DNA from: a virus
Taxonomy: Duplodnaviria > Heunggongvirae > Uroviricota > Caudoviricetes
Strand: one strand, 5' to 3'
IMG/VR virus record: IMGVR_UViG_2558860904_000026
Location: 1-10,201 of that record
Length of the DNA: 10,201 nucleotides
The notes beneath the pieces are model-generated. The model worked only from the letters and a program-made list of their open reading frames with translations. It searched no databases and was not told the DNA's origin. Shown here piece after piece: positions 1 through 10,201 of this stretch (within the stretch, counting starts at the first letter, position 1; every line of letters starts with the position of its first letter). The position numbers and the translations under genes are program-made.

Positions 1-957
1 ATGTTAAAGATAATACCCGGTGCAACAGGATACTTTAATAAAACACTCAATTCAAATCAATTCGATAATGAAGATGCAATCAAAGGTAAAGTAAATAGTA
101 TATATGGTAAATCTATTGATTATTCAACGATGCGTCATCGGGATATAATTATTGCAAAAATAGATTTATTTATTCAAAGAATCACTCATAATTTATGGAC
201 TGCACGTGAAAAAAATGTGACGTTAATTAAGCAAATAAACGATCTCAAAATGTGTGTCAATGAGTATATTGGAGATTGTACTGATGAGGAATTAAACGAT
301 CGTGAATTTATTGCATCAGTTGTTGACAGGGCTATTTTTCATTTCGCGATTAATAGTATATGTAATCCCGAGGATAATAAAGATGCGACACTCATAGAAC
401 GATGTACTTTTGATGTAGAAACCAAGAATGGTCTTCCCTCCACGGTTCAGCTATTTTATGAGGAATCTAAAGATAATGAACCTTTAGCGAATATACATTT
501 GCAAGCAATAGGTTCTGGTTTCTTAACGTTTGTTAATGCCTGCCAGGAACATGATGACAACAGCTTAAAATTATTTGCTTCGCTGTTAATTTCCCTTTCA
601 TATTCTAGTGTCTACTCAGATTTTGCAGGAAGAGTGAATATTAATGAATATAATGATAACTACCTGAAAGCTCAGTTTGAAGAATTATCTCAACGTGATA
701 TGAAGAAGTACCTGGGAGAGATGAAGCGTCTGGCAGATGGGGGAGAAATGAATTTTGATGGCTATCTGGATAAGATGTCACATCTGGTGAATGAAGGAAC
801 GCTCGCCCCTGATATTTTAAGCAAAATGCGAGATGCTGCACCGAAATTAATTGACTTTGCTAAGTCGTTTGACCCAAACTCAAAGGAAAAGATTAAAATA
901 TATACAGGCACTTCTAAATTAATTTATGATTTATTCGGGGTTAAATCGGAGAAATAA
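1..957 (+). CDS. Hypothetical protein, 318 aa, strongly AT-rich; no family recognised. Sits upstream of the dusA 5' fragment, so probably host flank or an older island.
   Basis: Uninterrupted 957-nt ORF ending TAA, followed by a rho-independent terminator. Composition is visibly AT-rich with Lys/Asn/Asp/Ile-rich codons, unlike the tail genes. Begins with ATG at position 1, so the true start may lie upstream of the window; an internal ATG at 250 would give a 235-aa product. Any correspondence to the K-12 gene upstream of dusA (yjbM-like) is unverified recall. Confidence 0.55.
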
Positions 958-998
958 TATGTGAAGTTCTTCGATGGTATGAAAGGTATTACATAAAA

Positions 999-1027
999 GA
1001 ACCCAATGTTTATTGGGTTCTTTTTTT
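999..1027 (+). terminator. Rho-independent terminator after the 318-aa gene
   Basis: Inverted repeat agaacccaat / attgggttc with a 4-nt loop, followed directly by a T7 run (1021-1027). Confidence 0.7.
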
Positions 1028-1318
1028 CTCTATCAGTGCTATTAGCAGGGAGAGATATCACCGGAGTTTAATGTGTGATTTTTATTTATCGTCGAATCTG
1101 TATTGTTTATCATTGCTTTTCACAACGCTAACATCTAATAAGATTAGATATTCACTTCGTGAGAGCTTCATGCCTTGAGAGGATCTCAATTTTCTTTTGC
1201 AATGAGACAGGCGCTTCCTGTTGTTATGGTATAGTACCCCGTTATTGAGCCTCCTGAACAGTGATGCTGAATAACATAACCACATGATATATCGATAAAA
1301 TAATCTCTACATTTGAAA

Positions 1319-1441
1319 ATGCACGGTAATTCTGAAATGCAAAAAATCAACCAAACCAGCGCAATGCCTGAAAAAACTGACGTTCACTGGAGTGGTCGGT
1401 TTAGCGTTGCACCAATGCTCGATAGGATGTACCGTTTTTGA
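1319..1441 (+). pseudogene. dusA: Orphan 5' fragment of dusA (tRNA-dihydrouridine synthase A): about 35 native N-terminal codons, then unrelated sequence and a stop
   Basis: Translation MHGNSEMQKINQTSAMPEKTDVHWSGRFSVAPMLD matches the E. coli DusA N-terminus as I recall it (native continues WTDRHCRYF). Here the frame continues RMYRF-stop, so homology ends after codon GAT at 1421-1423. Confidence 0.7.
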
Positions 1442-1531
1442 AAAACAAATAGTTATATACTTTGTGGGAGCCTATTGGGAACCCGGCGTTTTCATTTCAA
1501 GGTGTAATCCATACGCGGCTTAAGAATGAGA

Positions 1532-1537
1532 TATAAT
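1532..1537 (+). promoter_or_regulatory. Candidate -10 hexamer (TATAAT) about 30 nt upstream of the GNAT-like gene
   Basis: Perfect TATAAT at 1532-1537; no convincing -35 at 17-bp spacing (ccatac). Weak call. Confidence 0.25.
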
Positions 1538-1566
1538 GCGACTTTTAGTGTTCCGCTTGAGAGGCC

Positions 1567-2103
1567 ATGATGCTTACCCTGGACGAGATAGGTCAATCAG
1601 TACGTAACAATATCCAGTTGATTATTGATCATGTCGGCTTACCTCTTGCTGTTGGTCCGCTCAGTGATGATGATTACAAGATTCTGTGTGGTGGCTATGG
1701 TGAGCTTGAATGGGACTATGCGTTAAGTACCTATGGCAACTCCAGAGAAAAGTATGAGTTCTGCATAAAACTTGTTCAGCAAGGTCGGGTTCAGGGAATA
1801 CCATCAGGAGCAGCAATTTGTGTTTATGGGGTTGAAGAAAACATCTTTCGTATCCATATGATCGAAAGGTTTTCTAGAGAAGATGAATCTCACCCATTGA
1901 AAGGGCGCATGGTTTTACTCACTCTTATGAGTGCTTTTATATTTTGTAAAGCTGTTGAATGTAAAGTTGTCCACATTGTAGAGCCAGTACCAGAACTGGT
2001 GCAGTATTACGAGTCTTTTGGTTTCCGCATGGAACAGTGCGGTTATGTGATGTCGGCAGTCATTGATGAGCTGCAGGATATCTTTCTTAAATTTGCTCAG
2101 TAG
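1567..2103 (+). CDS. GNAT-fold (N-acetyltransferase-like) protein, 178 aa, first gene inside the element after the dusA junction
   Basis: ORF with SD-like GAGAGG (1559-1564); tandem ATGs at 1567 and 1570, and 1570 has the better spacing. C-terminal half has GNAT-like layout: beta strand ICVYGVEENIFRIHMIERF, then HPLKGRMVLLTLMSAF, then YYESFGF resembling the Y-x-x-GF motif. No canonical Q/R-x-x-G-x-G/A acetyl-CoA motif, so the fold assignment is tentative. Confidence 0.6.
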   Translation: MMLTLDEIGQSVRNNIQLIIDHVGLPLAVGPLSDDDYKILCGGYGELEWDYALSTYGNSREKYEFCIKLVQQGRVQGIPSGAAICVYGVEENIFRIHMIERFSREDESHPLKGRMVLLTLMSAFIFCKAVECKVVHIVEPVPELVQYYESFGFRMEQCGYVMSAVIDELQDIFLKFAQ

Positions 2104-2120
2104 GTATAGACGAGAAGGGT

Positions 2121-2133
2121 CTACAAATTGTAG
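2121..2133. promoter_or_regulatory. Short palindrome ctacaa-a-ttgtag immediately after the GNAT-like gene stop
   Basis: 6-bp perfect inverted repeat around a single central base, embedded in a longer imperfect palindrome (gggtctacaaattgtaggataccc). No T-run follows, so not a classic terminator. Confidence 0.25.
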
Positions 2134-2208
2134 GATACCCGTCCAGATTACCTTAAAGGTACATCTATGGCAGTCGTTTTGTGCTTAAACTACTAAGAAA
2201 CGATGTCA

Positions 2209-2229
2209 CCAATCGACATGATCGATTGG
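2209..2229. promoter_or_regulatory. Operator-like inverted repeat ccaatcga-N5-tcgattgg upstream of the 57-aa gene
   Basis: Perfect 8-bp arms with a 5-bp spacer, about 70 bp upstream of the ATG at 2300; overlaps a TTGGCA hexamer. Confidence 0.3.
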
Positions 2230-2299
2230 CATAAGTTAGCGAAACAAGCTAGCTTTAAAGAAAGGGTTAGAGACGCCTTTACTGTCTCGGGAGTTTTCT

Positions 2300-2473
2300 A
2301 TGAAAGATCAAAAAGCAACCAAGCCACAGGTTAAGTTCGACACAATGAAAGCATTCGCAGGTATGGGTGCTGCTGTTGAAGTTCTGATGAAGGCTGCTCC
2401 TAATGCGTTCACTCACGCTACTGTCTCTGGTAAAGAGCAGCAGGGTAAGCTTCGTCGTCGCAAAGCAGCATGA
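2300..2473 (+). CDS. Small hypothetical protein, 57 aa, basic C-terminus (MKDQKATKPQVKFDTMKAFAGMGAAVEVLMKAAPNAFTHATVSGKEQQGKLRRRKAA)
   Basis: Not in the supplied ORF track (below its size cut-off). Found by hand: SD GGGAG at 2289-2293, 6-nt spacer, ATG at 2300, stop TGA at 2471-2473, then a strong terminator. Confidence 0.5.
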   Translation: MKDQKATKPQVKFDTMKAFAGMGAAVEVLMKAAPNAFTHATVSGKEQQGKLRRRKAA

Positions 2474-2492
2474 TCATAGCTGGTGCTTTTTG

Positions 2493-2518
2493 AAAACCCG
2501 CCTTCAGGCGGGTTTTTT
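2493..2518. terminator. Bidirectional rho-independent terminator between the converging 57-aa gene (+) and PrtN-like gene (-)
   Basis: aaaa-cccgcc-ttca-ggcggg-tttttt: GC-rich 6-bp stem with 4-nt loop, A-run on one side and T-run on the other, so it can terminate both strands. Confidence 0.75.
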
Positions 2519-2520
2519 CT

Positions 2521-2802
2521 TTAGTGATGTTCTTTGTCCTTCTGTTTGACTGTTCTGACCTGTTCCCACTCGATACGTCCTTCTTCTCGCCTTTTGTCTA
2601 TGTATTCCGCAAGATCTTGAATATTGATGCAACGTTTTGCTTTTTGTGATGTGCCGATGCGATATGTTGGAACGGGCAACTTACAAGCGTTTGCTTTTGC
2701 TTCTGCCGTGGCTGGACTCATACCAAAGTACTTTTGGCTAACTGCTGAGAGTTCAATGTTTGGGGTATTGAATTCAGCCATCAGTAAAAACAAGGTGTTC
2801 AT
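2521..2802 (-). CDS. PrtN-like small DNA-binding protein (putative phage transcriptional activator or excisionase-like), about 93 aa
   Basis: Minus-strand ORF; the track start at 2829 is GTG. The ATG at 2802 has SD GGAG with a 6-nt spacer and gives MNTLFLLMAEFNTPNIELSAVSQKYFGMSPATAEAKANACKLPVPTYRIG..., which I recognise as the PrtN/pyocin-activator-like family common in enterobacterial prophage early regions. Recall only. Confidence 0.6.
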   Translation of the reverse strand: MNTLFLLMAEFNTPNIELSAVSQKYFGMSPATAEAKANACKLPVPTYRIGTSQKAKRCINIQDLAEYIDKRREEGRIEWEQVRTVKQKDKEHH

Positions 2803-2838
2803 AATTTTCTCCATCAAAACCGGCTGCACCCGGGAAAA

Positions 2839-3213
2839 TCATAATTCTGTGCTGGTGGCAGGAATTAATTTCTGCCAGATAGCGGAAACATATTTTGCCT
2901 GATGACGGGCATCAGCCAGGGCGTTGTGCCGTTCGCCATCGAAAGGCATGTCCATTTTGGGGTCGAATCCGATGGAACGCCCAAGCGTAACGATCGTGCG
3001 TACATCGTGGTCATTCCAGTACGCCCACGGGCAGATTTGTCCTGCTCGCTCGTAAGCTCCACGTAAAATTACGTTGTCGAAGGTGGCCCCGTTACCCCAG
3101 ACTTTTAAATATTTCGTATTGTCTGCGTGCCGGTTAATGAAATGGTTTAGTTCTGAGAGAGCATCGCTGATCGACAAAGTATCATCAATACTTCCAGCGA
3201 TACCAGCGCGACT
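2839..3213 (-). pseudogene. DnaQ-like (DEDDh) 3'-5' exonuclease, C-terminal part only; N-terminus lost or frameshifted
   Basis: Translation ...WGNGATFDNVILRGAYERAG...HNALADARHQAKYVSAIWQKL carries Exo II-like (FDN) and Exo III-like (H-x-A-x-x-DA) motifs. The frame is open upstream only to a stop at 3214-3216, has no ATG and starts at TTG in the track. No Exo I (D-x-E) segment is present in this frame. Confidence 0.6.
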
Positions 3214-3344
3214 TTAAATGCGGTAAGTACGTTTTTAACCACATCGATTTTGAATACTATTTCATCACATACAAACGATTTATCGTCTACTACCGTTTCA
3301 ATTCCGGTAATCGTGTTTTGTAGCCATTTGGTTAATTCAGCCAT
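3147..3344 (-). CDS. 65-aa ORF overlapping the exonuclease fragment in the +1 frame; possibly a displaced or replaced N-terminal segment
   Basis: ATG at 3344, stop at 3147. Overlaps the exonuclease frame by about 65 nt one frame off; a single-nucleotide indel between about 3180 and 3250 would fuse them. No recognisable motif; weak SD. Confidence 0.3.
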   Translation of the reverse strand: MAELTKWLQNTITGIETVVDDKSFVCDEIVFKIDVVKNVLTAFKVALVSLEVLMILCRSAMLSQN

Positions 3345-3352
3345 TTTTCATT

Positions 3353-3369
3353 ACCGCCCTTTCGGGCGG
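3353..3369 (-). promoter_or_regulatory. GC-rich hairpin (accgccc-tttc-gggcggt) in the leader 9 nt upstream of the 65-aa ORF start
   Basis: 7-bp perfect stem with tetraloop; no U-run on either strand, so not a terminator. Possible RNA structure in a 5' UTR. Confidence 0.25.
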
Positions 3370-3490
3370 TCTCCTGATGTTCTGAGGGTGCAGGAATCCC
3401 TCCGGTTAAGGATTAAATTTTATTTACAGAACTGAATTTAATTATTCAGATATACGTATCTGTAACCTTACGAACCTACTCACTGGATGC

Positions 3491-3997
3491 CTATTTCATA
3501 AAAATAATCCAGTGGGTTTTATCGTTTTTTCCTGTTCGTTGACCGATAACAGGTTTTCTGTCGGTCAGTACCAATATCTGGCGAACAGGTATTTGCGTTT
3601 CATTCCATTTAAAAATCAGAACGCCGGATGGACGCAACACACGAAAGGCTTCTTTAAATCCCTGCCGCAAATCATCACGCTAGGTATCTTTATTCAGCCG
3701 TCCATATTTCTTTCCCATCCAGGCGTTATCACCAACACGCTCAAGATGCGGAGGGTCGAATATAACCATCGAAAAAGATGCGTCTGCAAATGGTAGTGCA
3801 CGAAAATCAGCTATCAGATCAGGACTGATAATCAGGCGTCGTCCATCACACAATGTGTGCTCTTCCTTTCTGATATCGCTAAATATCGCCCGGTCGTCAT
3901 TCTTATCGAACCAGAACATGCGACTGCCACAGCACATGTCGAGGATTGCTGCATGTCCAGTCACTGGCTGCCTCCTTTGCGAAGCCGTTCCGCCCAT
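3491..3997 (-). pseudogene. Class I SAM-dependent methyltransferase (about 167 aa) interrupted by an in-frame amber (TAG) codon at 3680-3682
   Basis: N-terminal 105 aa contain motif I-like ILDMCCGS, an acidic loop, and LPFADASFSMVIFDPPH. After the TAG the same frame stays open for 62 more codons (RDDLRQGFKEAFRVLRPSGVLIFKWN...) including an RVL-x-P-G-G-like methyltransferase motif, and ends at a stop at 3491-3493. I translated the downstream segment by hand. Confidence 0.6.
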
Positions 3998-4311
3998 TCT
4001 TCAAGGGATTTCTCTGCATATTCACCGGACAGGCCATCAATCGGATGCGATTCATTAGCTAACTCTTCTTTTGCTGACAGAATCATGCGTGTAACGTCGA
4101 AAACTTCAGCCAAAGGCTTATTGATAAATCCGTGATTGAAAGCAGCAGCAAGACGGCTTGCGGTATAGTTAATACCCTCGTTGCGAGCCTCAGCACGTAC
4201 TTCATCGAATTTACGCACCAGATACTCAGCATTTGTTTCATTCACTTTCAGATCTCGCGGTACACATTTCCCGCGAAGAAACCCTTCCATTTCGAAAACA
4301 TTCATGCGCAT
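3961..4311 (-). CDS. Hypothetical prophage early-region protein, 116 aa
   Basis: ATG at 4311 preceded by SD GGAG with an 8-nt spacer. Its start overlaps the HD gene stop (ATGCGCATGA) and its 3' end overlaps the methyltransferase start by 37 nt, which suggests translational coupling. No motif recognised. Confidence 0.55.
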   Translation of the reverse strand: MRMNVFEMEGFLRGKCVPRDLKVNETNAEYLVRKFDEVRAEARNEGINYTASRLAAAFNHGFINKPLAEVFDVTRMILSAKEELANESHPIDGLSGEYAEKSLEEWAERLRKGGSQ

Positions 4312-4838
4312 TTGTGTAACTCCGATAACTCGTTAAAACGTTCCATAAACATCCCGTAGGCATGGCTAGGTGCCAGTGGAATCACGTTGAACATCTCTGT
4401 TGCCGGGATGCCTTCCAGTACAGGCCAGAAAGAGCCATCATCAAGCCCGAGATCGCGGCGTTCGGTTGCCAGCATGATAAGATCGGCATATTTCACGGGC
4501 GTACTCATAACTGGGGGTAACCCGTATTTCTCACGGATTACGGCGTCAATTTTTTCTTCCATCCGTTTATAGTCAGGAAGAAGGCGTTTCAGTGGAGCGG
4601 GGATGTCCTGGCAATACGCTTCTGTTGCATCATGCATTAATGCTTCAAAAGCAAATTCCTGCGGTACCAGCTGGCTGCAAAGAACCGCATGTTGGGCGAC
4701 GCTGTAGAAGTGCGAAAGATGACCGGCAAAGCGACAGATATTTGAAAGGGAAACCGCGATATCGTTAATATCGATGTCGTCTTTATTTATCCTGTCATAA
4801 TAAAAATGCTTCCCGGAAAAAGTTTTAATAAATGACAT
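4302..4838 (-). CDS. HD-domain phosphohydrolase (YfdR-like 5'-deoxynucleotidase family), 178 aa
   Basis: Translation contains H...HD metal-binding signature (SVAQHAV ... LMHDATEAY) typical of HD hydrolases. The track start at 4865 is GTG; the ATG at 4838 has SD GGAG with a 6-nt spacer and gives 178 aa, the length I recall for E. coli YfdR. Confidence 0.7.
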   Translation of the reverse strand: MSFIKTFSGKHFYYDRINKDDIDINDIAVSLSNICRFAGHLSHFYSVAQHAVLCSQLVPQEFAFEALMHDATEAYCQDIPAPLKRLLPDYKRMEEKIDAVIREKYGLPPVMSTPVKYADLIMLATERRDLGLDDGSFWPVLEGIPATEMFNVIPLAPSHAYGMFMERFNELSELHKCA

Positions 4839-4931
4839 TTTGTTCTCCACGTATATGCGCTGCACCGCGCTGAATTCTGGTAAAAAGAATCCCTCACCAT
4901 CCGGCGATTATTGAGTAAATTACGTTTCCAT

Positions 4932-4953
4932 AAATGCCCCCTCAGGGGCATTT
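4932..4953 (-). terminator. Perfect 9-bp hairpin (aaatgcccc-ctca-ggggcattt) 13 nt downstream of the 128-aa ORF stop; weak terminator or RNA stability element
   Basis: Perfect inverted repeat with 4-nt loop; the only U residues are those within the stem, so intrinsic termination is uncertain. Confidence 0.3.
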
Positions 4954-4965
4954 GCAGTAATGAAA

Positions 4966-5352
4966 TCAGGCGGTGAAAGTACCAATAAAGGTTTCTACTT
5001 TGCTGTCCTTGAATTTCTCAACAAGCAGATCACGAAATTCGTTAGCCATTTCTTCCTGCACCGCCTCCAGCTGAATAATGCGCAGAACCAGTACCGGACG
5101 ATCGCCAGTGATAATGCTGAGGCGTAATTTAAACGGACGTTCTTTCAGACCTTCAAACGGAATGCATTTAAATTCAAATGCCACTGGCATAATGTCTTTG
5201 GTCTTCGCTTCGACAGACTCCATCAGGGAGCGTTTGCCGCTGAAGTCATTATCTTCAAAATCAGCGGTCTGGTTTGCTTCAATCGTGATTTTACGGACCG
5301 CCGCAGCCGCTTTTGTTGCCTGAATGGTGTCACCATTAGCATCAAAGCCCAC
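4966..5352 (-). pseudogene. Hypothetical early-region protein, probably 5'-truncated at the deletion junction with the J fragment
   Basis: Frame is open from 5406 down to the stop at 4966 but has no ATG; the first possible start is GTG at 5352. The upstream end abuts and overlaps sequence that encodes J-like protein on the opposite strand. Confidence 0.45.
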
Positions 5353-6110
5353 AAGGTAGTCGGCCCAGTCTTCAATCCATTCTGGTTGCCGCCAATCGTA
5401 TCGCGTTTATTGACCCGGCAAACGGGAATGAAACGCCGATGTTTGTGGCGCAGGGCAACCAGATATTCATGAACGACGTGTTCCTGAAGCGCCTGACGGC
5501 CCCCACCATTACCAGCGGTGGAAATCCACCGGTATTTTCCCTGACATCAGACGGAAAGCTGACCGCTAAAAATGCGGATATCAGTGGCAGTGTGAATGCG
5601 AACTCCGGGACGCTCAACAACGTCACGGTAAATGAAAACTGTACGATTAAGGGCATGCTGGAGGCGACTCAGGTCAGAGGTGACTTCGTTAAAGCTGTAT
5701 CCAAATCATTTCCGAAACAGGCTGGTACGTGGGGTAACACGGAAACACCAAACGGGACGGTTACAGTCACCATCAGCGATGATCATAACTTTGACCGTCA
5801 AATCATTATTCCGCCCATTATCTTTAACGGAATAGCGTATAGCGATCCGGGAAGTGGTAATAACCCGGGAGGTACAAGATACACGGGTTATGGTTTTGAA
5901 GTTCGCAAAAACGGTGTATTAATCGCATCCAGAGAAACTAAAGGGGCCATTCCCGGTAGCTACAGTGCGGTTATTGATATGCCGAGTGGCAGGGGAAGCG
6001 TCACTCTGGAGTTTAAGGTTTTCCATAAAGGCAATCAGCGGGCAGGTAATATCACCGACTGTACGGTGATTGTGACCAAAAAAGCGGCTTCCGGCATCAG
6101 TATCCGTTGA
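5340..6110 (+). pseudogene. J: C-terminal (receptor-binding) fragment of a lambda J-like central tail fibre / host specificity protein
   Basis: Translation ...[74 protein letters not shown]... matches what I recall of the lambda J C-terminus, and it sits directly upstream of lom-stf-tfa as in lambda. Frame opens only at 5340; lambda J is over 1100 aa, so roughly the first 900 codons are missing. Confidence 0.7.
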
Positions 6111-6132
6111 AATATTTATAACCCTAATAACG

Positions 6133-6156
6133 GGCGCCAGAAATGGCGCCTTTTTT
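6133..6156 (+). terminator. Rho-independent terminator between the J fragment and lom
   Basis: ggcgcca-gaaa-tggcgcc stem with GNRA-type tetraloop, followed by T6 (6151-6156). Confidence 0.75.
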
Positions 6157-6180
6157 ATTGCAGAAAATCGGGAGGTAATT

Positions 6181-6780
6181 ATGCGTAAAGTTTGTGCAGC
6201 AATTTTGTCCGCAGCCATTTGTCTGGCCGTATCCGGTGTGCCTGCATGGGCGTCTGAGCATCAGTCCACGCTGAGCGCAGGATATCTTCATGCCAGTACG
6301 GACGCTCCCGGCAGCGATGATCTGAACGGGATTAACGTGAAATACCGTTATGAGTTTACGGACACACTGGGGCTGATTACGTCCTTCAGTTATGCCAACG
6401 CCGAAGATGAGCAAAAAACGCATTACAGCGATACCCGCTGGCATGAGGATTACGTGCGTAACCGCTGGTTCAGCGTGATGGCAGGGCCGTCTGTGCGTGT
6501 GAATGAATGGTTCAGTGCGTATGCGATGGCGGGTGTGGCTTACAGCCGTGTGTCGACTTTTTCCGGGGATTATTTCCGCGTAACTGACAACAAGAGGAAA
6601 ACGCACGACGTGCTGACCGGAAGTGATGACGCTCGCTACAGCAACACATCTCTGGCGTGGGGGGCTGGCGTGCAGTTTAACCCGACCGAATCAGTGGCCG
6701 TTGATGTCGCTTATGAAGGCTCCGGCAGCGGTGACTGGCGCACTGACGGTTTCATCGTGGGTGTCGGTTATAAATTTTGA
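6181..6780 (+). CDS. lom: Lom-family outer-membrane beta-barrel protein (Ail/Lom/OmpX family), 199 aa
   Basis: SD GGAGG (6171-6175), ATG at 6181. N-terminal signal peptide MRKVCAAILSAAICLAVSGVPAWA. C-terminus ...VDVAYEGSGSGDWRTDGFIVGVGYKF matches the lambda Lom C-terminus as recalled. Canonical position between J and stf. Confidence 0.9.
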   Translation: MRKVCAAILSAAICLAVSGVPAWASEHQSTLSAGYLHASTDAPGSDDLNGINVKYRYEFTDTLGLITSFSYANAEDEQKTHYSDTRWHEDYVRNRWFSVMAGPSVRVNEWFSAYAMAGVAYSRVSTFSGDYFRVTDNKRKTHDVLTGSDDARYSNTSLAWGAGVQFNPTESVAVDVAYEGSGSGDWRTDGFIVGVGYKF

Positions 6781-6801
6781 TTAGTAACACAGCGTTATGA
6801 C

Positions 6802-6829
6802 AGCCCGCCGGTTCAGGCGGGCTTTTTTG
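6802..6829 (+). terminator. Rho-independent terminator after lom
   Basis: agcccgcc-ggttca-ggcgggct stem-loop followed by T6 (6824-6829). Confidence 0.75.
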
Positions 6830-6839
6830 TGGAGTGGGT

Positions 6840-9758
6840 ATGGCAGCAGTACAAATATCAGGCGTGCTGAAAGATGGTGCGGGAAAACCAATACAGAACT
6901 GCACCATTCAACTGAAAGCCAGACGTAACAGCACCACGGTGGTGGTGAACACGGTGGCCTCTGAAAATCCGGATGAGGCAGGGCGTTACAGCATGGACGT
7001 CGAGTATGGTCAGTACAGCGTCATTCTGTTGGTGGAAGGGTTCCCGCCGTCACATGCCGGGACCATCACCGTGTATGAAGATTCTCAACCCGGTACGCTG
7101 AATGATTTTCTTGGTGCCATGACTGAGGATGATGTCCGTCCGGAGGCACTGCGCCGTTTTGAGCTGATGGTGGAAGAGGTGGCGCGTAACGCGTCCGCGG
7201 TGGCACAGAACACGGCAGCCGCGAAGAAGTCAGCCAGCGATGCCAGCACATCAGCCCGTGAGGCGGCAACCCATGCGACTGATGCTGCGGACTCAGCACG
7301 CGCAGCCAGCACGTCAGCCGGACAGGCCGCGTCGTCGGCTCAGTCAGCGTCTTCCAGCGCAGGAACGGCATCAACAAAGGCTACTGAAGCATCAAAAAGT
7401 GCTGCCGCTGCAGAGTCCTCAAAAAGCGCGGCGGCTACCAGTGCCGGTGCGGCGAAAACGTCAGAAACGAATGCGGCAGTGTCACAACAATCAGCCGCCA
7501 CTTCTGCATCCACCGCGACCACGAAAGCGTCAGAAGCTGCCTCCTCAGCCAGGGATGCGTCGGCTTCAAAAGAGGCGGCAAAATCATCAGAAACGAGCGC
7601 AGCCTCGAGCGCCAGTAGTGCAGCCTCCTCGGCAACGGCGGCAGGCAATTCCGCGAAGGCGGCCAAAACGTCTGAGACAAACGCTAAGTCCTCTGAAACG
7701 GCAGCAGAACAGAGTGCCTCCGCAGCAGCAGGCTCAAAAACAGCGGCTGCATTATCTGCCAGTGCCGCGTCAACAAGTGCCGGGCAGGCCTCAGCCAGTG
7801 CCACCGCCGCCGGAAAATCGGCAGAAAGTGCCGCATCGTCTGCTTCAACAGCCACAACGAAGGCTGGCGAAGCCACTGAACAGGCCAGCGCAGCAGCGAG
7901 TTCTGCTTCCGCAGCGAAGACATCCGAAACGAACGCGAAAGCGTCGGAAACCAGCGCAGAATCCTCAAAAACGGCTGCCGCATCGTCAGCCAGTTCGGCG
8001 GCGTCATCGGCATCATCTGCGTCTGCTTCAAAAGATGAGGCGACCAGACAAGCGTCAGCAGCGAAGAGCAGCGCCACGACGGCATCCACGAAGGCGACAG
8101 AGGCAGCTGGTAGTGCGACGGCAGCAGCTCAGAGCAAAAGTACGGCGGAATCTGCAGCAACGCGCGCTGAGACAGCGGCAAAACGGGCAGAGGATATTGC
8201 ATCCGCCGTGGCGCTTGAGGATGCGAGCACGACGAAAAAGGGGATAGTACAGCTCAGCAGTGCGACTAACAGCACTTCCGAGTCACTGGCGGCAACGCCA
8301 AAAGCCGTTAAGGCCGCGTATGAGCTGGCTAACGGGAAATACACCGCACAGGATGCAACGACAGCACAGAAAGGGATAGTTCAGCTTAGCAACGCGACCA
8401 ACAGCACATCTGAAATGCTGGCGGCAACGCCAAAGTCGGTAAAGGCAGCCTATGACCTTGCTAACGGGAAATATACTGCTCAGGACGCTACGACAGCACA
8501 AAAAGGAATTGTCCAGCTCAGTAGTGCAACCAACAGCGCATCTGAAACGCTTGCCGCGACACCGAAAGCAGTGAAAGCAGCTAATGATAATGCGAATGGT
8601 CGGGTACCTTCTGCCCGTAAGGTGAATGGTAAGGCGCTTTCATCGGATATAACACTGACGCCGAAAGATATTGGTACGCTTAACTCAACAACAATGTCAT
8701 TCAGCGGTGGTGCTGGTTGGTTCAAATTAGCAACGGTAACCATGCCACAGGCGAGTTCTGTTGTTTCAATTACGTTGATTGGTGGCGCGGGATTTAACGT
8801 GGGGTCACCTCAACAGGCAGGTATATCTGAACTTGTTTTGCGTGCAGGTAATGGTAATCCGAAGGGGATTACTGGTGCTTTATGGCAGCGCACATCGACA
8901 GGGTTTACAAATTTTGCCTGGGTCAATACATCTGGTGATACTTACGATATTTACGTTGCAATCGGAAATTATGCGACTGGTGTAAATATTCAATGGGATT
9001 ATACCAGTAATGCCAGCGTGACGATTCATACGTCACCAGCATATTCTGCTAATAAGCCGGAAGGGTTAACGGACGGTACAGTTTATTCACTCTATACGCC
9101 ATCAGAGCAGTTTTATCCGCCTGGCGCACCAATCCCGTGGCCATCAGATACCGTTCCGTCTGGCTATGCCCTGATGCAGGGGCAGACTTTTGACAAATCT
9201 GCATACCCGAAACTTGCAGCCGCTTATCCGTCAGGCGTGATCCCTGATATGCGTGGCTGGACGATTAAGGGCAAACCTGCCAGTGGTCGGGCCGTATTGT
9301 CTCAGGAACAGGACGGCATTAAATCGCACACCCACAGCGCCAGCGCATCCAGTACGGATTTGGGGACGAAAACCACATCGTCGTTTGATTACGGCACTAA
9401 ATCCACGAATAACACCGGGGCGCACACGCACAGTGTGAGCGGTACAGCCGCAAGTGCCGGAAACCATACTCATAGTGTCACAGGCGCATCAGCAGTCAGC
9501 CAGTGGTCACAAAATGGGTCAGTACATAAGGTAGTGTCTGCGGCCAGTGTGAATACAAGTGCTGCAGGAGCGCACACTCATAGTGTCAGCGGCACAGCTG
9601 CATCTGCAGGTGCTCACGCACATACTGTCGGTATTGGTGCTCATACGCACTCTGTTGCGATTGGCTCACATGGACACACCATCACCGTTAACGCTGCGGG
9701 TAACGCGGAAAACACTGTCAAAAACATCGCATTTAACTACATTGTGAGGCTTGCATAA
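6840..9758 (+). CDS. stf: Side tail fibre protein Stf, 972 aa, with lambda-like N-terminus, long Ala/Ser/Thr-rich low-complexity region, three tandem 44-aa repeats and His-rich C-terminal tip
   Basis: ATG at 6840 with SD GGAG (6831-6834); the track start at 6834 is GTG with no spacer. N-terminus [39 protein letters not shown]... matches the lambda Stf N-terminus as recalled. C-terminal repeats [15 protein letters not shown] with H-x-H motifs are typical of phage fibre tips. Stop TAA at 9756-9758. Confidence 0.9.
8236..8631 (+). repeat. Three tandem 132-bp (44-codon) repeats inside stf
   Basis: Units begin at about 8241, 8373 and 8505 (gggatagtac / gggatagttc / ggaattgtcc). They encode [45 protein letters not shown] and two variants; the third copy diverges at its end. 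Confidence 0.8.
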
Positions 9759-10201
9759 TGGCATTCAGAATGAGTGAACAACCACGGACCATAAAAATTT
9801 ATAATCTGCTGACCGGAACTAATGAATTTATTGGTGAAGGTGACGCATATATTCCGCCTCATACAGGTCTGCCAGCAAACAGTACCTATATTGCACCGCC
9901 AGATATTCCGGCTGGCTTCGTGGCTGTTTTCAACAGTGATGAGTCATCGTGGCATCTCGTTGAAGATCATCGGGGTAAAACGGTTTATGACGTGGCTTCC
10001 GGCGACGCGTTATTTATTTCTGAACTCGGCTCATTACCGGAAAATGTTACCTGGTTATCGCCGGAAGGGGAGTTTCAGAAGTGGAACGGCACAGCCTGGG
10101 TGAAAGATGCAGAAGCAGAAAAACTGTTCCGGATCCGGGAGGCGGAAGAAACAAAAAACAGCCTGATGCAGGTAGCCAGTGAGCATATTGCGCCACTTCA
10201 G
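9758..10201 (+). CDS. tfa: Tail fibre assembly chaperone Tfa, N-terminal 148 codons; gene runs off the window end
   Basis: ATG at 9758-9760 overlaps the stf stop (TAATG); SD GAGG at 9746-9749. Translation [78 protein letters not shown]... matches lambda Tfa as recalled. No stop within the window, so it is absent from the ORF track. Confidence 0.9.

Follow-up and report, generated by a model that had tools for sequence, protein, structure and literature searches.

A deletion scar, probably formed at short homology, joins yfdQ to the 3′ end of J in a dusA prophage remnant of Escherichia coli O157:H7

In the stretch of DNA analysed here (10,201 nucleotides, called the window), a minus-strand early gene of lambdoid type that lacks its start lies directly against a plus-strand fragment of the tail-tip gene J. 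The original prediction, made from the letters alone, read this adjacency as a deletion scar in a prophage remnant, and the locus therefore raises the questions of whether the join is genuine, how it was made, and what has become of the genes left on its two sides. The window is the last 10.2 kb of draft contig AVQX01000121.1 (63,299 bp), which stops 1 nt past the window, inside tfa. Its features, listed below, were assembled from the open reading frame listing, Pfam scans, and the annotation of identical or near-identical public genomes.

1–957, plus strand: host gene of the DUF2713 family, next to zur in O157:H7 (Pfam DUF2713, E = 1.4e-143; annotated in O157:H7 Z563); chromosomal flank.
1290–1422, plus strand: displaced native dusA 5′ end, the left attachment-site boundary (100% identical to the intact dusA 5′ end of empty-site genomes).
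1567–2103, plus strand: small phage gene resembling mEp460 gp23, intact (mEp460 identity and annotations).
2300–2473, plus strand: small phage gene resembling mEp460 gp24, intact (mEp460 identity and annotations).
2521–2829, minus strand: PrtN-type excisionase gene (xis), intact (Pfam PyocinActivator, E = 4e-23; mEp460 gp25 is annotated as an excisionase).
2839–3191, minus strand: 3′-5′ exonuclease gene lacking the part for its N-terminus (Pfam Rv2179c-like, only profile positions 79–177 of 177).
3491–3964, minus strand: SAM-dependent methyltransferase pseudogene, W95* (T at 3681, C in the O111 prophage).
3961–4311, minus strand: hypothetical gene, intact (annotation, identical O157 sequence).
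4302–4838, minus strand: yfdR-like 5′-deoxynucleotidase gene, intact (annotation, identical O157 sequence; weak Pfam YfbR-like match).
4966–5384, minus strand: C-terminal half of the DUF2303/YfdQ early-left gene (blastn, Pfam, protein alignment); N-terminal half and promoter side deleted.
5380–5384, no strand: deletion junction, TTCTG (three-way alignments, using two or three proxies for each parent).
5385–6110, plus strand: 3′ fragment of tail-tip gene J (Pfam and protein alignment), including the whole C-terminal receptor-binding domain.
6132–6151, plus strand: terminator-like hairpin after J (a rho-independent terminator is annotated at the same place in mEp460).
6181–6780, plus strand: lom, an Ail/Lom outer-membrane beta-barrel gene, intact (Pfam Ail_Lom, E = 1.8e-131, full length).
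6802–6823, plus strand: terminator-like hairpin after lom (mEp460 also has a terminator after lom).
6840–9758, plus strand: side tail fibre gene stf, 972 aa, intact (Pfam phage_tail_N, Phage_fiber_2, Collar).
9758–10201, plus strand: first 148 codons of the tail fibre assembly gene tfa (Pfam Caudo_TAP), running off the window.

The left end of the element is that of a prophage integrated in dusA. The piece at 1290–1422, which is identical to dusA at the empty site, is annotated as a dusA pseudogene fragment in both O157 and O111 genomes, and it is the displaced native 5′ fragment found at the far end of such elements; its positions 1316–1422 are 85% identical (blastn) to the phage-supplied dusA 5′ end at the opposite end of the O157 remnant. 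In complete O157 genomes with the same scar, an intact integrase gene (365 aa) stands beside dusA, and the source contig of the window ends before that position. Integrases specific for dusA, including that of mEp460, have been described, and about half of dusA islands are islands or phage remnants (Farrugia et al. 2015, PMC4482086). The host DUF2713 gene to the left is a single 318-aa open reading frame in the window and in O157:H7, and is annotated as frameshifted in O111:NM 2010C-3053.

The reading frames around the join are as originally described. The plus-strand frame of the J-like ORF opens at 5340, right after a TAG at 5337–5339, and its first start codon, an ATG at 5439, gives 223 aa; the minus-strand frame that ends at 4966 stays open to 5406, with a stop at 5407–5409, no ATG, and only a GTG at 5352 from which a 128-aa ORF could begin. 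By blastn against mEp460, window 4203–5384 corresponds to the early region and ends in the middle of gp34 (DUF2303), and window 5380–7678 corresponds to J from codon ~895 on, so that the two alignments overlap by 5 bp. Homology to yfdQ/DUF2303 stops at 5384 against mEp460, the E. coli B27 prophage and the O111:NM prophage alike, and homology to J starts at 5380 against both mEp460 and the O157 prophage at att-lambda. Mapping against related intact phages, the check that had been proposed, places the join at 5380–5384 (mEp460 and the O111 prophage); as judged from these alignments, the true breakpoint lies there and is neither of the frame boundaries.

Both genes at the join are fragments. YfdQ keeps residues 137–274 of 274 (98% identity by protein alignment) and matches the Pfam DUF2303 profile only at positions 133–269 of 269, and it is for this reason classed as a gene fragment (yfdQ′). 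Compared with a full-length tail-tip protein of ~1,130 aa with its N-terminal tail-tip domains, the J piece holds residues ~896–1137 only, and it too is therefore a fragment (J′): the last ~241 codons of a 1137-residue protein, 95% identical to mEp460 J, with Pfam matches to Phage_Tail_Tip positions 54–138 of 139 and to the complete Ig_GpJ_C. The prediction that this was a C-terminal piece of a protein over 1100 aa long thus stands, but the predicted length of about 220 residues fell short of the measured one. In complete O157 genomes the NCBI pipeline PGAP annotates yfdQ′ and J′ side by side, both as pseudogenes.

Because the window is the end of a draft contig, an artefact had to be excluded. 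A misjoin of an early-region contig with a J-containing contig would be in keeping with a source contig that stops in repetitive tfa, and the stretch right of 5516 does look suspicious (see below). However, window 1–5515 is 100% identical to O157:H7 strain Z563, that is, through the junction and for 131 bp beyond it, and of 5,426 complete E. coli genomes, 202 cover without a break a 400-bp query that has the junction at its centre; those of the 202 that were inspected are O157:H7-type or cattle isolates. Since the same join is spanned in this many finished assemblies, in which PGAP also places the two pseudogene halves next to each other, the junction is not an assembly error, and we regard a misjoin at this point as practically out of the question. 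The predicted adjacency of the two fragments is thereby confirmed. In these complete O157 genomes the element runs in the order dusA′ fragment, gp23, gp24, xis, truncated exonuclease gene, methyltransferase pseudogene, hypothetical gene, yfdR, yfdQ′, J′ and lom, followed by stf (437 aa), fiber_C, tfa′, three NleG genes, a capsid-gene scrap, DinI, int and dusA. The whole is ~11 kb long and has no immunity, replication, lysis or morphogenesis genes.

What is missing can be read from two relatives that continue through both breakpoints. The genome of mEp460, when opened at attP, is collinear with both sides of the scar and holds 32,188 bp (32.2 kb) of its 44,510 bp between the equivalent breakpoints. 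The better comparator of the two is O111:NM strain 2010C-3053 (NZ_CP077526), which carries a near-complete prophage at the same dusA site with ~30.3 kb in the corresponding interval: past the breakpoint it continues with the N-terminal half of yfdQ, yfdP, an XRE/cI-type repressor gene, a cro-like gene, ymfL and Q, and further on with three tRNAs, holin, lysozyme, Rz, terminase, capsid, portal and tail genes, and J. The statement that the immunity, replication, lysis and head genes and most of the tail region are absent is correct, because both relatives carry those genes, 30–32 kb in all, between the breakpoints. By blastn, collinearity with mEp460 and the O111 dusA prophage holds on both sides of the gap, the modules for lytic growth are gone, and yfdQ′ and J′ abut at 5380–5384; these comparisons support the view of the locus as a lambdoid prophage remnant in which an internal deletion fused the early-left block to the 3′ end of J.

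The sequence at the join suggests how this deletion may have arisen. The pentamer TTCTG (5380–5384), which lies within the interval 5350–5400 where microhomology had been expected, is present in both parental sequences and is kept once at the join, and beyond it the far sides are unrelated; the probability that a random join would share at least five bases is ~0.005. The parents are proxies for an ancestor that is unavailable, namely yfdQ of mEp460, the B27 prophage and the O111 prophage on the left (n = 3) and J of mEp460 and the O157 att-lambda prophage on the right (n = 2). mEp460 matches the J side at only ~92% identity, and in the O111 prophage the J C-terminus is a different one, so both the length of the microhomology and the size of the deletion are estimates. 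At the join, the ORF list, annotation and a repeat scan showed neither an IS nor an att-like site nor any long repeat, and nearby repeats are at most 10 nt long. An IS-mediated deletion or a site-specific event is ruled out, as neither an IS nor an att-like repeat is present there. Together, the TTCTG common to both parents and the lack of an IS make illegitimate deletion at short homology the best-supported explanation, either through replication slippage or through microhomology-guided end-joining, with the route suggested by the 5-bp homology. Just past the breakpoint (equivalent to 5385–5398), the yfdQ parents read CCAGTGATTTCTGG or TCAGTGATTTCTGG, which resembles CCAGTTTCTGG ahead of the breakpoint in J, and a longer, imperfect homology around the join may have helped the misalignment.

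The history of the element would then be as follows. Its ancestor was a phage like mEp460, and the defective prophage that descended from it, of which the window holds the left two-thirds, occupies the 5′ end of dusA on a chromosome of E. coli O157:H7 type. The ancestral order would have been the displaced dusA fragment, gp23, gp24, xis, an early-left operon (exo through yfdR, yfdQ and yfdP), repressor, cro and replication genes, then Q, lysis, head and tail genes through J, lom, stf and tfa, and finally cargo, DinI, int and dusA. One illegitimate recombination between two TTCTG pentamers, probably independent of RecA and likely to have proceeded by slipped mispairing in replication or microhomology-guided end-joining, would have joined yfdQ codon 137 to J codon ~896, and the 30–32 kb lost would have included every function for immunity, replication, lysis and virion assembly. 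The event presumably occurred once, in the ancestor of an O157:H7 sublineage, and would have left an inert fossil whose early genes are promoterless and decaying. We give a probability of roughly 90% to this reading, in which a single internal deletion of an mEp460-like prophage at dusA removed 30–32 kb and left an inert fossil. The breakpoints, the microhomology, the lost gene content and the recurrence of the junction in many finished genomes are demonstrated here; that the event was single, its route and its one-time origin are inferred.

One junction alone cannot separate a single deletion from a nested series. It is conceivable that the join was made stepwise, or that two different lambdoid prophages of the same host recombined and the J fragment, for instance, was brought in from another prophage. 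The J C-terminus of the remnant is of another type than that of the otherwise near-identical O111 dusA prophage, segments of J, lom and stf move among O157 prophages (as at the switches at 5516 and 7023 discussed below, and in a hybrid found in two drafts), and a second, independent scar at 3191 means that multiple deletions did occur in this element. Set against these points, a single family of dusA phages is matched at either end of the O157 element (dusA′ with gp23 on one side, DinI-int-dusA on the other) and in its stf region, the mEp460 J C-terminus (95% protein identity) is found in the expected position, and one deletion is the most parsimonious account. We therefore consider the stepwise or inter-prophage origin unlikely and retain the single internal deletion as the preferred reading.

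The scar at window 3191 belongs to a more general decay of the early block. There, 1,463 bp (1.46 kb) of the O111 prophage are absent, with a 1-bp overlap (the blastn alignment jumps from O111 position 21902 to 23366). The lost segment held the exonuclease N-terminus, DUF551 pseudogenes and a portion of a hypothetical gene, and O157:H7 Z563 carries this scar as well. Between 3191 and 5384 (2,194 bp) the sole difference from the O111 prophage is a TGG-to-TAG change at 3681, the W95* of the methyltransferase, which PGAP flags as an internal stop in O157. Three of the seven early genes are thus broken (methyltransferase by the nonsense mutation, exonuclease by truncation, yfdQ by halving), and the promoter-proximal region of the early-left operon is lost. 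The suggestion that early genes were retained by selection for host-beneficial functions finds no support, because the block that would have been selected is decaying. For the same reason any selective retention would concern the cargo of the right arm, for which it is plausible; this cargo is lom, to which complete O157 genomes add three NleG genes, DinI and int. The right-arm genes (lom, the tail-fibre genes and those NleG genes) are intact and lie in their own terminator-bounded units. Outside the window, the right arm of the remnant in O157:H7 Z563 carries three intact NleG (DUF1076) type III effector genes, and a 120-bp capsid-gene scrap between the last NleG and DinI hints at a further rearrangement scar.

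The intactness of int, xis and both att boundaries in complete O157 genomes, along with cargo that includes undamaged lom and NleG genes, might suggest a working mini-element kept by selection, for instance a satellite or a tail-fibre cassette island, in which the yfdQ′-J′ join is a designed module boundary. However, the join interrupts a domain in each of its two genes (DUF2303 133–269 of 269, Phage_Tail_Tip 54–138 of 139) and PGAP calls both pseudogenes, early genes nearby are damaged by a nonsense mutation and a further truncation, and replication and packaging functions are lacking. Moreover, a promoter scan of window 4900–6900 found no promoter-like site and hence offers nothing in favour of the J′ ORF being expressed from the junction. 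Such a design is very improbable, and an inert fossil left by deletion remains the preferred description.

A separate question is whether everything to the right of the scar in this contig belongs to it. The window can be divided into three parts, each identical to a different O157:H7 source. Part A (1–5515) is 100% identical to the O157:H7 dusA remnant, and mismatches to the remnant begin at 5516. Part B (5380–7023), which takes in the J C-terminus, lom and the 5′ end of stf, has its 100% match in the att-lambda prophage of O157:H7 strain 611, a prophage that resembles Sp3/CP-933K and carries nleB2, nleC, nleH1 and nleD. Part C (7023–10201) is 100% identical to stf and tfa of an O157:H7 prophage adjoining Mn-catalase genes. 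The A-to-B join is absent from complete genomes, all 202 junction carriers being 98.5–98.8% identical over 5185–5584, and the B-to-C join is absent from the 5,426 complete E. coli genomes, in which the best match across 7023 is 97.6%.

The hybrid of parts B and C is real. It occurs identically in an independent draft, AOES01000074.1, where the Mn-catalase locus rather than dusA comes next, and the known parents share only 1 bp at the 7023 switch. A simple k-mer misjoin of known O157 parents at 7023 is ruled out, given that no complete genome bridges this position (best match 97.6%) and that the hybrid is present in a second draft. The link from A to B occurs in one draft contig only and runs through a 131-bp stretch (5385–5515) common to the remnant J′ and the att-lambda J; strain-specific gene conversion and a draft misjoin are about equally good explanations of the switch. 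If J′, lom, stf and tfa are truly linked to the scar, to which we tentatively assign slightly under even odds, then gene conversion would have replaced sequence of the remnant with that of two other prophages of the same host, the att-lambda prophage from ~5516 to 7023 and the Mn-catalase-adjacent one from 7023 on. In that event, the prophage fossils of O157:H7 would be live recombination partners that store and shuffle host-range modules (the J C-terminus, stf and tfa). The original prediction also held that the remnant had retained lom-stf-tfa; lom and stf are indeed intact and the start of tfa is in the window, but no complete genome has this particular block joined to the scar. In practice, the tail-fibre portion of contig AVQX01000121.1 calls for caution, since it may not belong to the dusA locus. 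This doubt about linkage to the right of 5516 leaves the scar itself unaffected.

Among the closest known systems is phage mEp460 (NC_019716), which has the same gene order on both sides of the scar and is 98.4% identical over window 1316–3191, 95.8% over 4203–5384 and 92.3% over 5380–7678; it shares the PrtN-type xis, yfdR, DUF2303, J, lom and stf, and the terminators after J and lom. In contrast to the window, which lacks the 32.2 kb between gp34 codon 137 and J codon ~895, mEp460 is complete at 44.5 kb, and it differs further in having another module at the equivalent of window 3329–4202 and no NleG cargo. The O111:NM prophage shares the insertion site, is 100% identical over window 1290–2520 and 99.95% identical over 3191–5384, and has several protein accessions identical to those of the O157 remnant. 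It differs in keeping intact yfdQ, immunity, Q, lysis, head and tail genes, in a different J C-terminus (~71% nucleotide identity), and in its effector cargo of espM2, espW and NleG; it has defects of its own, namely an IS1203 fragment and frameshifted int and portal genes.

The remnant itself lies in a region that has been reported before. A phage region of ~12 kb between yjbK and dusA in O157:H7 SS17, ‘Region 21’, which Sakai and EDL933 lack (Cote et al. 2015, PMC4321836), is the same element. The inspected O157:H7 genomes, including SS17 (CP008805), carry the identical yfdQ′-J′ junction. Like mEp460, the O157 remnant ends in DinI, int and dusA. The genomes of SS17 type differ from the window to the right of the scar. 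Their J′ ORF is 217 aa long and their stf 437 aa (223 aa and 972 aa in the window), their lom differs from the att-lambda-prophage lom that the window carries, and after stf come fiber_C, three NleG genes, DinI and int. Identity with SpLE5 of Sakai was considered as well and is ruled out: SpLE5 lies at 5.35 Mb next to SpLE6, and Region 21 is absent from that strain (PMC4321836). The scar is thus a case of ordinary prophage decay in an already described region, to which the present analysis adds the base-pair breakpoints, the 5-bp microhomology and the likely mechanism, details of little import beyond bookkeeping. The remnant marks an O157:H7 sublineage, and its junction could serve as a lineage marker or PCR target.

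Decay by deletion is textbook behaviour for the cryptic lambdoid prophages of E. coli K-12, such as CPS-53/KpLE1, Rac, Qin and DLP12. These prophages resemble the remnant in having internal deletions that spare int-proximal early genes and tail-fibre genes. CPS-53 in particular carries homologous yfdQ, yfdR and other yfd genes, with 98% identity over window 5185–5384. The K-12 elements differ from the dusA remnant in attachment site, breakpoints and cargo.
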